Assembly (NCBI GenBank): GCA_951406725.2
Contig: OX597836.1
Location: forward strand, 26,350,001 to 26,414,000
Direction: 5' to 3'
Source: Octopus vulgaris
Taxonomy: Eukaryota
Length of the DNA: 64,000 nucleotides
The stretch's first letter is position 1, and each line of letters begins with the position of its first letter. Of this stretch, positions 53,801-59,800 are shown in pieces. The notes beneath the pieces were generated by a model. The model did not search any database and was not told the origin of the DNA. It was given only the letters and a program-made list of their open reading frames with translations. The translations under genes and the position numbers were made by a program.

Positions 53801-56800
53801 AAACATAGAGGGGACAAACAAGGACAGACATAGGTATTAAGTCGATTACATCGACCCCAGTACGCAACTGGTACTTAATTTATCGACCCCGAAAGGATGA
53901 AAGGCAAAGTCGACCTCGGCGGAATTTGAACTCAGAACCTAACAGCAGACGAAATACGGTTACGCATTTCGCCCGGCGTGCTAACGTTTCTGCCAGCTCG
54001 CCGCCTTAAATTAGTGGATAATACCACTGTGCGACTGGCGGTCGTACACTACCAGAGAGAAATATCCTATATCGATGACTTCGGTATATAACAATAGTGA
54101 GGGCGCGTGGCTTAGTGGTTAGGGCATTCGGCTCATGATCGTAAGGTTGTGAGTTCGATTCCCGGCGACGCGTTGTGTCCTTGAGCAAGACACTTTATTT
54201 CACGTTGCTCCAGTCCACTCAGCTGGCAAAAATGAGTTGTACTTGTATTTCAAAGGGTCAGCCTTGTCACGCTGATTATCCCTGAGAACTACGTTAAGGG
54301 TACACGTGTCTGTGGAATGCTCAGCCATTTGCACGTTAATTTCACGAGCAAGCTGTTCCGTTGATCGTATCAGCTGGGACCCTCGTCGTCGTAACCGGCG
54401 GAGTCTTTAAAATATAACAATATCTGTCAGAGGGACGACCGTCGTACAAAGATAGATACAACAGTGGCATAAGACCGCTTTGTAATAACCATCAAGGCGG
54501 CGAGCGAGCAGAATGGATAGCGCGCCGGGCGAAATGCGCAACAGCAATTCGTCCATCTTTACATTCTGAGTTCGAATTTCGCCGAGGTCCATTTTTTACA
54601 TCAATCCTTTCGGGGTCGATAAAATAAGTACCAGTTGATCACTGCGGTTCATGTAACCCCCCCCCCCACGAAATTGCTGGTCTTGTGGCAAAATTTGAAA
54701 CCATGTGTAGGGAGCTTGCATGCGCATCGGGTTTGCATGCGCAGCGAGCCTGCATGCGCAGCGGGCATGCAGCCGGCAACCTGCAGCCTACGGTGTTCTT
54801 TTCAACTAATACTTTCCTGATTATTCTGGCCGTGCCAAGGTGACAAACCTTTTGTAACAGTTCTACTGGGCACTCTATTCCAATTTCCTTTATATTCCCC
54901 TAGTTGCCTTCTGATACTGTCCCCAAGGACCCAACAATATTTGGTGCTATCTTCCCCTTCTTCATTTTCCATAGCCCTTCTATTTCGTACTTAAGAGGGT
55001 TGTATATATATCTATTTTTCGTCTTCTTTCTTGACTATTCGTAGGTCAAAGGGGCGCGCAACTTCAACTATATAGCATATATGGTCACCTTGTCTACCAC
55101 CACTAGGTCCGGTCTGTTATGCTCTAGTATCTGATCTTTTTGGATTGGGAAATTGCAGAGGATGTTTCAGGTCTGTGACCCCACCGTTCTCTGCAGTTTA
55201 TGCTCATACGACTTGCCTCTCTCTAGCCCCCACATTAATATTATTTATCATTATTATTATTATTATCATTATTATTATTATTATTATTATCATTATTATT
55301 ATTATTATTATTATTATTATTATTATTATTATTATTATTATTATATTTTATGTTTGACATTTGCTTCACATTTGTACAAGTTGGCTCCAAGTCTCACCCA
55401 GAGACCTCAAGAGACAACAAGTTGGAAGGTCATGTTGTTATCATTATTATTATTATTATTATTATTATTATTATTATTATTATTATTATTGAGTGAGAGA
55501 GCAGTTCATGCCATCAAAGTGACACTGGGGTAAAATATACGAAGCCCAATATACCCATCATGACTACCCGTCTGATAAGGGTACACCAGGCACATGCATC
55601 ACAACCATATGTGCGCGACATGGTGATCTCATATCAAGATAAACAGCACATGACCTTGCAGGTGGGGCCCAGTTAGAATTTTCTTCAGGTTGAGTAGCCC
55701 ATCCTGCTCAAGCGGTCCCTGAATAAGGGTTGTTTAAGGATGTTGAAAGAACCACCCATGTTTCCAGAGGTGAATTATTCAAACCCCAAAGAATCCCTCT
55801 CAACACATGGCTATGATGCTCCCCCACTACTTCTGCTCGTGATCAGAGATGTACATATCGTCAGCCACTAAGGGACATGCTCAACTGGTTATGGTCAAAC
55901 AACTGACAAGCAAATCTATGGTATTGAGCAGAATATTTGCTGTAGCCCATCTTTTATACCAAGACAAAACAATGTACATGATAACACTTCCAATCAGTTA
56001 AGATCAGAAACCATTATTGAGTGAGAGAGCAGTTCATGCCATCAAAGTGACACTGGGGTAAAATATACGAAGCCCAATATACCCATCATGACTACCCGTC
56101 TGATAAGGGTACACTAGGCACATCATCACAACCATATGTGCGCGACATGGTGATCTCACACCAAGGTAAACAGCACATGACTATGCAGGTGGGGCCCAGT
56201 TAGAATTTTCTTCAGGTTGAGTAGCCCATCCCGCTCAAAAGGTCCCTGAATAAGGCTTGTTTAAGGATGTTGAAAGAACCACCCATGTTTCCAGAGGTGA
56301 ATTATTCAAATCCCAAAGAATCCCTCTCAACACACGGCTATGATGCTCCCCCACTACTTCTGCTCGTGATCAGAGATGCACATATCGTCAGCCACTAAGG
56401 GACATGCTCAACTGGTTAAGGTCAAACAACTGACAAGCAAATCTGTGGTATTGAGCAGAATATTTGCTGTAGCCCATCTTATTATTATTATTATTATTAT
56501 TATTATTATTATTATTATTATTATTGTCATTATTATTATTATTATTATTATTATTATTATTATTATTATTATTACTGTGGCTGTTGTTGTTGATTTCAGA
56601 TTGTCGTGATGAAAATTTTGATTGTCGTTACTGGGCCGTTACCGGAGAATGTAAAACTAGTGCAGAGTTCATGAATAAAGAATGTAGGAAATCTTGTCAG
56701 TTGTGTAAGTCCATGCACCAAACTCAACCAGCAGTTGATGGTAAGTTTACCTTTGGATTCTTCTACCCGGTTGTCATTCACTTTTCCTGCTCCACCCGTT

Positions 56801-59800
56801 TTCTACTGTTGTTTCATTTAAGAAGTAACGAGATATTTATAAACAAAATGTAACAGAAACACCCTCCAGCTATTTCATAGCGAAGGGAATTTTACAAATG
56901 GCCGTTGGGATTGGCCTTGATTTGGGAATGGTGGGTAGATTACTCGGAGTTTCTCGCAAGCCACGGGGTGGGTGTATGTGTGTGTGTGTGTGTGTGTGTG
57001 TGTGTAAAACTTGAACGGCAAAAATCCCATTTTATTTCATTTTCTTCTTATGATAAAAATATGTTCACACCACGCCCTCGGAGAGAAACCAACAGGTGTA
57101 AAACCACACAGGTATTCTCTCTTTAATATATGAATAATGGTAGAGAGGCAGGTTGGATGACTCGTTAGCATGCCAGGCAAAACGCTCGGCGGCATTTCGT
57201 TCATCTTTAAGTTCTGAGTTCAAACTCCGCCGAGGTCGATATTGCCTTTCATCCTTTCGGGGTCAATAAAACATGTACCAGTGGTCAATGCAATTGATTT
57301 AACCCCACCGCCACCAGAAATTGCTGGCCTTCTGCCAAAATTTCAAAACCATTACTATTATTATTATTATTATTATTATTATTATTATTATTATTATTAT
57401 TATCATTATTATTATTATTATTATTATTATTATTATTATTATTGAGTGAGAGAGCAGCGCATGCCATCAAAGTGACACTGGATTAAAATATACGAAGCCC
57501 AGTATACCCATCATAACCACCCGTCTGATAAGGGTACACCAGGCACATGCATCACAACCATATGTGCGCGACATGGTGATCTCATATCAAGGTAAACAGC
57601 GCATGACCTTGCAGGTGGGGCCCAGATAGAATTTTCTTCAGGTCGAGTAGCCCATCCCGCTCAAAATGTCCCTGAATAAGGGTTGTTTAAGGATGTTGAA
57701 AGAACCACCCATGTTTCCAGAGGTGAATTATTCAAACCCCAAAGAATCCCTCTCAACACATGGCTATGATGCTCCCCTGCTACTTCTGCTCGTGATCAGA
57801 GATGTACATATCGTCAGCCACTAAGGGACATGATCAACTGGTTAAGGTCAAACAACTGACAAGCAAATCTGTGGTATTGAGCAGAATATTTGCTGTAGCC
57901 CATCTTTTTATACCAAAACAAAATAATGTACATGATAACACTTCCAATCAGTGAAGATCAGCAGCCATGAGAGCCACTGCCCGGTACTGCATCAGAGCAT
58001 TTAGTATTTATTTTTGTTGTTGTGGGTGGTAGTGTTGGTGGTGATGGTGGTGGTGGGGGTGGTGTTATTATTATTATTGTTGTTGTTGTGGGTGGTAGTG
58101 GTGGTGGTGGTGGTGGTGGTGGTGGTGTTATTATTATTATTATTGTTGTTGTTGTTGTTGTTGATTTCAGATTGTCTTGATCAACATAAGAAGTGTCCTC
58201 ATTGGGCCTCTGTCGGAGAATGTGACAAGAATCCGAAATACATGCATAAGTACTGTGAAAAATCTTGTCAGTTGTGTGAAGGTAAGTTTATCTTTGGCTT
58301 CTTCTACCCGGTTGTCCTTCACTTTTCCTGCTCCACCCGTTTTCTACTGTTGTTTCCTTTCAAAACAAAATGTAATAAGAACACCCTCCAACTATTTCAT
58401 AGCGAAGGGAATTTTACAAATGAGCATTAGGATTGGTGTTGATTTAGGAATGGTGAGTACAATACTCGGAGTTTCTCGCAAGTCACGGGTGTGAATTTAT
58501 TCACCATTCTCTTAAATGAGTGTGTGTGTGTGTGTGTGTGTGTGTGTGTGTGTGTGTGTGTGTGTGTGTGTGTGTGTGTGTGTATTTTATTGGAAAAATA
58601 CCTCCACACTACGCCCTCAGGGAGAAGCCAACGGGTGTAAAGCCACACAGATATTCTCTCTTTAATATGGTATGAATGGTGATAGGGCGATGACCTGGCG
58701 GAATCGTTAGCACGCCAGGCAAAACGCTTGACGGCATTTCGTTCATCTTTAAGTTCTGAGTTCAAACTACACCGAGATCGACTTTGCATTTCATCCTTTC
58801 AGAGTCGAGTACCAGTTACGCACTGGGGTCGATGTAATTGACTCATCATCCCTTCCCCCAAAATTTCAGGCCTTATGCCTATTGTAGAAAGGCATATTAT
58901 TATTATTATTATTATTATTATTATTATTATTATTATTATTATTATCATTATCATTATTATTATTATTATTATTATTATTGTTGTTGTTGTTGTTGTCGAT
59001 TTCAGATTGTGCTGATCAAAATGAAGATTGCGCATTTTTGACCTCTATCGGAGATTGTAGCAAGAACCCTGGCTACATGTATACAAAGTGTAAGAAATCT
59101 TGTAAAATGTGTCTTTCTAACGCTCACGTTCCAAGTGTATCTAAAAGTAAGTTTACCTTTGGCTTCTTCTACCCGGTTGTCATTCACTTTTCCTGCTCCA
59201 CCCGTTTTCTACTGTTGTTTCGTTTGAAAAAGTAACGAGATATTTATAAACAAAATGTAATAAGAACATCCTCCAAATATTTCATAGCGAAGGGAACTTA
59301 ACAAATGGCCGTTGGGATTGGTGTTGCTTTGGGAATGGTGAGTACAGTACTCGGAGTTTCCCGCAAGCCACGAGTGTGAATTTATTCATCATTCCCTAAA
59401 ATGATTGAGGGGTGGCCTTGCTAGCCTTGTAGGCCTTGAACCAACACTTGAAACCATTATTGTTGTTGTTGTTGTTCTTATTGTTATCATCATAATCATC
59501 ATCATCGTAGTCGTCATTGTCATCATCATCGTCATCATCATCAAGGCGGCGAGCTGGCAGAAACGTTAGCACCCCGGGCAAATTGCTTAGCCTTATTTCG
59601 CCCATCGGTAAGTTCTGAGTTCAAATTCTGCTAAGGTCGAATTTGCTTTTCATCTTTCAGAAGTCCATAAACTAAGTGCCATCGACTAGTGTCGATGTAA
59701 TCGACTAGTCCTTCCCTCACAAATTTCAGGCTTTTGTGCCTTTAGTAGAAAGGATTATCATTATTATTATCATTATCTTTTTTTCCTCTTCTTTCAAATT

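Follow-up and report, generated by a model that had tools for sequence, protein, structure and literature searches.

The window analysed here is a 64,000-nt stretch of the Octopus vulgaris genome (GenBank assembly GCA_951406725.2, contig OX597836.1, positions 26,350,001 to 26,414,000, forward strand) carrying two genes, A and B, that consist largely of exons for the ShK domain. With gene C upstream they form one locus of three tandem paralogues, gene C encoding an astacin–ShK protein and genes A and B being ShK-only. The repeated unit is a cassette of one exon and about 400 nt of downstream intron, of which the first ~215 nt are referred to as the post-donor block. In genes B and C these introns are far more alike than the exons beside them, and silent sites make the exons several times older than the introns, so that the intron looks an unsafe clock. 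The explanation that we consider probable is that the exons are old duplicates whose flanking introns were rejuvenated by conversion among cassettes and tandem genes, conversion into the ShK exons being removed by selection. These forces are not exclusive, since the explanation includes selection by which differences between exons are kept or driven.

Exon and intron divergence

The contrast is best seen in exons 3 and 5 of gene B (56600-56740 and 59006-59146), the focal pair. Both are 141 nt long and of phase 1-1; they have 14 of 46 residues in common, six of them Cys, and 58% nucleotide identity. In the blocks behind them 18 differences and one gap are seen over 215 aligned sites (91.6% identical; K = 0.089, first 8 nt excluded). 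A sequence-only reading of the window had given the same residue counts, which the exon alignment bears out, and its estimate by eye of ~90% identity over ~220 nt is close to the aligned value. Exon and block differ strongly in divergence (58/138 versus 18/215 sites, Fisher p = 1.7e-13).

Cassettes that are followed by the start of the block number 19 in the window (15 in gene A and 4 in gene B), as the sequence-only reading had counted, and 32 when 140 kb of flanking DNA is added. The comparisons and models below use 18 of the 32, namely the 19 with a full block less cassette 14752, which nearly duplicates 12199; the distal segment described below is present in 16. Among the 153 pairs of these 18 cassettes the focal pair has the highest ratio of exon to intron divergence (4.95), against a median of 1.30; for 35 pairs the ratio is below 1. 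Mean p-distances for exon core and block are 0.208 and 0.216 within gene A, 0.314 and 0.094 within gene B, and 0.298 and 0.142 between B and C; the contrast therefore belongs to genes B and C and not to gene A. The claim that introns are more conserved than exons, which had been made by setting amino-acid against nucleotide identity, accordingly holds for the focal pair and for genes B and C and fails in gene A. The block had also been noticed behind several gene A exons. It begins behind all 15 in the window, but the full ~215 nt is kept in 8 and most of it is lost in the other 7.

The block is locus-specific. All 32 genome matches fall in G000:C23:26.30-26.41 Mb, and a dispersed repeat as its source was rejected for this reason. 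Further downstream, a distal cassette-derived segment of unique intron (19 genome matches, all at this locus) provides a second non-coding clock. The upstream flank could not serve as a clock, being made up of a microsatellite and of a dispersed repeat with 3571 candidates, the latter the reason for setting it aside.

Silent sites and the intron clock

Rates were estimated by joint maximum likelihood (ML) of introns and codons, with the introns setting the branch lengths; the codon models were our own MG94/HKY code and not codeml. On the B and C branches silent sites of the exons change 4.71 times as fast as the introns (p = 1.4e-7) and replacement changes at variable sites 6.71 times as fast, the ratio of the two not differing from 1 (p = 0.17). 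On the A branches the values are 1.24 (p = 0.29) and 1.41. With the distal intron as the only clock the silent excess on B and C branches is 3.65-fold (p = 8e-5). Restriction to a 35-codon core gives 4.92 for silent (p<1e-6) and 5.64 for replacement changes (ratio p = 0.64), or a silent excess of 3.85 against the distal intron alone, and misalignment of the linker was rejected as a cause since this core-only rerun agrees. Across variants the excess on these branches is 3.7-4.9-fold (p<=1.2e-4), and with doublet mutations and three site classes allowed it is still 2.8-5.5-fold. The Nei-Gojobori dS on its own (0.62) was judged unreliable because of codons with multiple hits, and the ML estimates were used instead.

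In these models 30-40% of codons are frozen and the others change at about the silent rate. M0 gives an omega of 0.71, the comparison of M2a with M1a a likelihood ratio test (LRT) statistic of 4.6 (p = 0.10), and dN/dS at variable sites is 1.15-1.4, which is not significant. No test of dN>dS among the paralogues reached significance, neither this site test nor the branch tests quoted above (p = 0.17 and 0.64). The sequence-only reading had seen in the locus the accelerated-evolution signature of venom phospholipase A2 (PLA2) and conotoxin genes. The pattern does resemble these, down to a near-invariant signal exon, but the significant dN>dS that would go with it is missing among paralogues. 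It had also set down beforehand that a dS far above intron divergence would speak against positive selection, and on B and C branches dS is 4.7 times higher (LRT p = 1.4e-7). As silent sites are estimated to be as diverged as amino-acid-changing ones, it is likely that the introns were overwritten and that old exons were kept distinct by selection, a combination that mimics the signature of venom genes.

Conflicting trees and probable gene conversion

Overwriting of the block is directly supported by trees, in keeping with the intron-limited conversion that had been offered as an alternative. The exon data accept the tree of the distal intron (approximately unbiased (AU) test, p = 0.27) and reject that of the block (p = 0.0004), and block and distal data each reject the other's tree. 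Conflict as strong as that between block and distal segment was matched in 0/150 simulations on one tree with 16 cassettes and in 0/200 with 8 non-redundant ones. It disappears when cassette 1108 is left out (18/200) and persists without cassette 56600 (1/200). The block tree conflicts with both flanks because one class of gene A cassettes has a B-like block: by its exon and by its distal intron, the 1108 class belongs with other A cassettes. Within the quartet 1108/9755/56600/C, the A pair is joined by 22 of 24 informative sites in the flanks (with one site for each of the other groupings), and all six in the block join 1108 with 56600. This points to a B-like block having been written into a cassette of gene A.

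Several observations weigh against conversion. A pairwise homoplasy index (PHI)-like test was negative (p = 0.12-0.51), a GENECONV-like run test gave 2/36 pairs at nominal p<0.05 and none after correction, and a gene A clade forced on the block data was not rejected (AU p = 0.13). The quartet was chosen after the trees had been seen, and only about 4 of its 6 block sites are derived. The one tract demonstrated consists of B-like sequence within gene A, none being found between the focal cassettes of gene B. The step in divergence lies exactly at the donor (21/33 linker versus 1/67 intron differences in the focal pair), whereas a neutral linker subject to conversion would erode and leave a blurred boundary. 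Blocks of B and C are nearer to A blocks (0.169) than A blocks are to each other (0.216), which fits conversion only if gene B was the donor. The silent excess is borderline in the frozen codon class (2.8-fold; LRT 3.5, p about 0.06), and in a hand count only 2 of 13 degenerate codons for the same residue differ in the focal pair.

Age of the exons

Two proteins of O. bimaculoides, P0009 and P0153, have the same signal peptide as the genes of the locus. P0153 contains a counterpart of exon 59006 that agrees at 33/46 amino acids, with six residues found in no other cassette, a counterpart of the cassette in gene C (33/46, with five such private residues) and one of the terminal exon (26/35). 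The paralogous cassettes have 14-19/46 residues in common. The lineages of exon 59006, the gene C cassette and the terminal exon thus predate the species split, as judged at the protein level by counterparts with private residues. None of the six domains of P0153 has exon 56600 as its best match. Residues 1-115 of P0153 appear to be a fusion of the tail of an astacin gene, a block read-through and the next ShK-only gene, and this part of the model is likely a misannotation.

The mean autosomal dS for O. bimaculoides versus O. sinensis is given as 0.123 (PMC10925132). The focal intron pair, at 0.089, lies below this yardstick, which is a genome mean of a sister species pair and not a local value, a further point against the reading by conversion. 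Most paralogous non-coding parts, with K of 0.02-0.12, are likewise no older than the yardstick, while the flanks of the terminal exon are at 0.22-0.29; the genes are either mosaics of differently aged segments or partly constrained. Runs X16, X8 and X7 yielded no orthologous DNA of exon 59006, a gap that proves nothing, and word-indexed protein searches with single exons gave no match.

A possible course of events

A cassette from the tail of the astacin gene may have multiplied, genes A and B losing the protease. The exons would then have diverged, with 30-40% of codons frozen as modelled, while the intron island behind each exon recombined out of register, a step that was seen once in the 1108 class and would have to be general. 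The block may pair out of register during repair because it is the longest unique, repeat-free homology beside each exon. Tracts that entered a divergent B exon would be stopped by mismatch or purged. An extended version, in which working gene B is the conversion donor that resets introns throughout the cluster and selection meanwhile diversifies its ShK exons, giving a new family of secreted multi-ShK effectors from a protease-stripped astacin, is put forward tentatively and is more doubtful than its simpler form. Were it true, the locus with dated orthologues would show that the toxin signature can arise by conversion, and the snake PLA2 and conotoxin cases would merit re-reading.

Alternative explanations

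Acceleration of the toxin type would make the cassettes as young as their introns, with ShK exons split by bursts of positive selection and the silent excess an artefact of multiple hits. The sharp boundary at the donor fits this, as does the near-invariant signal exon, known from toxin families (PMC7285919, PMC2651877). Orthologous domains differ at 35/127 residues where 17.9% is expected for neutral variable sites at a dS of 0.123 (p = 0.005), an excess that assumes 30% frozen sites, is not clear at a dS of 0.16 (p = 0.10) and amounts to a weak sign of positive selection between species. With three site classes, roughly 20% of sites change at about 15 times the intron rate, versus 5.6 for silent changes, M2a has a class at 2.1 with 4 candidate codons, and organism B differs at 5/280 exon versus 3/717 intron sites (p = 0.044, or p = 0.27 for the block contig alone). 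Against it stand, besides the non-significant paralogue tests, the rejection of a silent rate fixed to the intron rate even when doublets are allowed (2dlnL 24.5), peculiarities of exon 59006 that are older than the species split, and the long exon branch that the astacin gene's own cassette shows as well. We regard this explanation as unlikely. Hypermutation restricted to exons, which would lift silent and replacement rates alike in expressed genes, accommodates the equal excess and the sharp boundary too, and also the silent excess of 5.6 in variable versus 2.8 in frozen codons, a difference that is not significant. It has to face the lack of any excess on gene A branches, a transition bias that is lower in exons than in introns (A-G rate 1.86 versus 2.47), contrary to CpG decay, and the conflict between two non-coding segments, which it does not explain. 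We regard it as very improbable.

The sequence-only reading had also proposed a functional splicing element. In this view purifying selection would preserve a splicing or editing element in B and C, the working genes, and the element would decay neutrally in A. In its favour, the B and C intron branches are 2-3 times shorter than those of A, and only 1 of the first 67 block sites differs in the focal pair. Conserved intron ends in conotoxin genes have been ascribed to splicing (PMC3862624). Compared with the 59147 block, three fragments from organism E show differences at 10/161 sites, half the 0.12 yardstick, but they are short, ascertained and of unestablished orthology. Folding gave no support: no conserved RNA structure was detected in the block (z-scores +0.54 and -0.92), the consensus energy is -5.8 kcal/mol with a double change in 1 of 14 pairs, and Rfam returned no family at its curated threshold, the two matches far below it lying over GT repeats. 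Rates within the block are near-uniform (gamma shape 11.8), and the divergence of block and distal segment differs at p<0.05 in 2/36 pairs, a comparison in which five blocks are clipped short. Two expressed B cassettes have an internal deletion in the block, the B exons look constitutively included, and constraint alone would not create the tree conflict. Splicing elements of the Dscam-like class combine conserved base pairing with the use of one exon out of many; a structured or Dscam-like mutually exclusive element is not supported here by folding or by exon depths. On balance intron constraint is a rather improbable explanation. The block as an alternative coding tail was rejected: read-through frames into it do exist, one of them included in P0153, but the copies have indels other than multiples of three, and block contigs have a depth of 3-4 versus about 4300 (run X12) and about 60 (run X9) for the exon. 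Conversion between cassettes, with selection on the exons, is retained as the best explanation.

Structure and expression of gene B

Gene B has five ShK exons, four of them cassettes. Its features are as follows.

50766..50834, + strand: exon 1, coding part, a predicted 23-aa signal peptide with the same amino acids in A, C and O. bimaculoides P0009/P0153
53111..53141, + strand: exon 2, a short pro-segment whose homologue is the second exon of astacin gene C
56600..56740, + strand: exon 3 (focal), ShK plus 11-codon linker, Pfam ShK E=2e-9
56741..56963, + strand: post-donor block of exon 3, closest relative of the B-like block in the gene A 1108 class
57007..57142, + strand: distal cassette-derived unique intron segment
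58171..58281, + strand: exon 4, ShK without linker, Lys-Tyr pair in BgK register
58282..58482, + strand: post-donor block of exon 4, internal deletion of ~22 nt relative to the 56741 block
59006..59146, + strand: exon 5 (focal), ShK plus linker, counterpart in O. bimaculoides P0153
59147..59370, + strand: post-donor block of exon 5, a cassette without the distal segment
62444..62554, + strand: exon 6, a recent duplicate of exon 4
62555..62755, + strand: post-donor block of exon 6
63793..63909, + strand: terminal ShK exon with stop codon, not a cassette, with different flanks

Exons 4 and 6 with their blocks (58171-58482 and 62444-62755) are 98% identical and reflect a recent internal duplication; the BgK register of their Lys-Tyr pair was established on exon 6. 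The ShK frame (PF01549) scored above the Pfam cut-off in 7/7 exons of the locus that were scanned (28.5-38.5 bits versus 20.9). A cassette-type (GTC)n(GTT)n tract at 51958-52110 ends in an acceptor-like TTTTAG and has no ShK exon behind it.

Gene B is transcribed and spliced. Contigs from four runs, whose assignment as RNA-type is a guess, match the exon borders and include the joints of exons 1 and 2 (3/4 runs) and into the terminal exon; exon 3 is spanned exactly (56599-56740) in 4/4. The terminal exon joins a 3' untranslated region (UTR) exon outside the window, with a loose contig end at 63909. In run X12 the exon contigs have depths of 3641, 8024 (a single contig for exons 4 and 6), 4330 and 4340. 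Although contig depth is a poor measure, this fits inclusion of every exon, and the exons look constitutive. Mutually exclusive splicing of B exons is unsupported by these values.

The product is predicted to be a secreted protein of five ShK domains, and is a putative effector that probably binds ion channels or proteases. The Lys-Tyr pair is present in two of its five domains (exons 4 and 6) and in neither focal exon. Among the listed rows of a proteome table of octopus skin mucus (supplement of PMC10138644) three gene B peptides were not found, and one spectrum matches a peptide of gene C. ShK and astacin were not found in 9 supplements of PMC7656900.

The tandem locus and its origin

Exon 1 and a 3' exon are common to genes A, B and C, and exon 1 has three full-length copies genome-wide. 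The signal exon differs at 0-1 of 69 nt among the paralogues; the 5'UTR, signal exon and start of intron 1 (window 50700-51000 and paralogous parts) are 96-98% identical across the three genes, and 37 translated positions of this 5' region are identical in O. bimaculoides P0153. The other two genes are placed as follows.

Window -72935 to about -40255 (L014-L002): gene C, astacin–ShK protease
1108..21450, + strand: in-window part of the gene A cassette array, 15 ShK exons, with 12 more upstream of the window
1249..1474, + strand: gene A block of the 1108 class, probable recipient of the B-like block
23962..24052, + strand: terminal ShK exon of gene A, decayed, with stop codon and two deletions

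Lying upstream of the window, gene C encodes an astacin metalloprotease with four ShK domains, and the O. vulgaris protein P0154 (nas-13-like in its source) maps onto it exon by exon. In this assembly a one-base frameshift disrupts the terminal ShK exon of gene C, which is where the model P0154 stops. The predicted signal peptide of gene C recurs unchanged in genes A and B, which have no protease exons, and gene A retains a remnant of the propeptide. Gene C is the likely parent of the ShK-only genes; from the shared exons and the remnant we infer that A and B arose when it was duplicated and the copies lost their protease exons.

Gene A comprises 27 cassettes and looks decayed: exon 6047-6187 has an in-frame TGA, the terminal exon is broken, and two cassette remnants lie upstream of the window (L006, near 72 and 4513). 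Most exons of its array have Lys-Tyr in BgK register. In the young part (window 1108-18876) exons are often more alike than introns (1108 versus 9755: dN 0.06, block K 0.19), and several A blocks resemble hybrids of two classes within their first 40 nt.

Elsewhere in the window, a tandem array of a 300-nt unit occupies 42155-44379 (and 38259-38558), with 7.4 copies at 98% identity. On the minus strand beyond it (L009-L010, window +91692 and +100488) are open frames of 1473 and 2454 aa, coiled-coil rich in appearance. Three widely spaced ShK matches of equal score lie at G000:C28:19764865, 10182566 and 17973528, and another multi-ShK cluster at C3:94.35-94.43 Mb may serve as a control locus.

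Comparison with known systems

A search by title and start of abstract found no paper on this locus among the records listed, subscription journals and most supplements being outside that search, nor is it described in the parts consulted of PMC7656900, PMC5714168, PMC8382921, PMC6609765, PMC10561478, PMC5062327 and PMC10138644. The locus would record the birth, in a cephalopod, of ShK-only secreted genes from an astacin parent. According to PMC6409789, the vampire snail Cumia reticulata has M12(astacin)-ShKT and ShK-only secreted proteins, and O. bimaculoides astacins have up to 4 ShK repeats. The present genes are similar in combining an astacin with several ShK domains, in having ShK-only secreted relatives and in frequent domain duplication; they differ in that the ShK-only genes adjoin the astacin parent, and in the 27 cassettes of gene A. 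Loss of the protease is visible here because the ShK-only genes lie next to the parent and have its exons 1 and 2. The six-Cys frame is also that of K+ channel blockers with the ShK fold (PDB 2mcr, part of a metalloproteinase, 2k72 of MMP23, 1bgk of BgK). Lys-Tyr in BgK register occurs in exons 4 and 6 and most A exons, unlike both focal exons, and this dyad is stated in PMC6409789 to be neither necessary nor sufficient.

Conserved introns around variable exons are widely taken as proof that toxins evolved adaptively and at an accelerated pace, with introns as the neutral clock. As in the genes for snake PLA2, for conotoxins and for scorpion toxins (PMC7285919, PMC3862624, PMC2651877), the signal exon and UTRs are near-invariant, the intron ends conserved and the mature Cys-framed domains variable, with KA close to KS. 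Unlike in those genes, there is no significant dN>dS and the repeats lie inside one precursor. The scorpion study reports a wobble rate at conserved sites equal to the intron rate; here it is the 2.8-fold, borderline value given above. The locus, with 32 units, one gene in decay beside another that works, and orthologues in other species, is a compact test bed in which conversion, constraint and selection can be separated.

The closest parallel is found in the primate L/M opsin genes, where introns are homogenized by conversion and exons exempt (PMC3213168, PMC3924837). There too the paralogues are in tandem, both dS and dN of the exons exceed intron divergence with dN not above dS, and exon and intron trees disagree. 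The octopus locus differs in its unit, a single-domain exon cassette present in 32 copies within and across three genes, in a homology island of only about 200-400 nt between repeats, and in that 60-70% of codons are free to change. As the mechanism is known from primate opsins, the locus is a new case of it and not a new kind.

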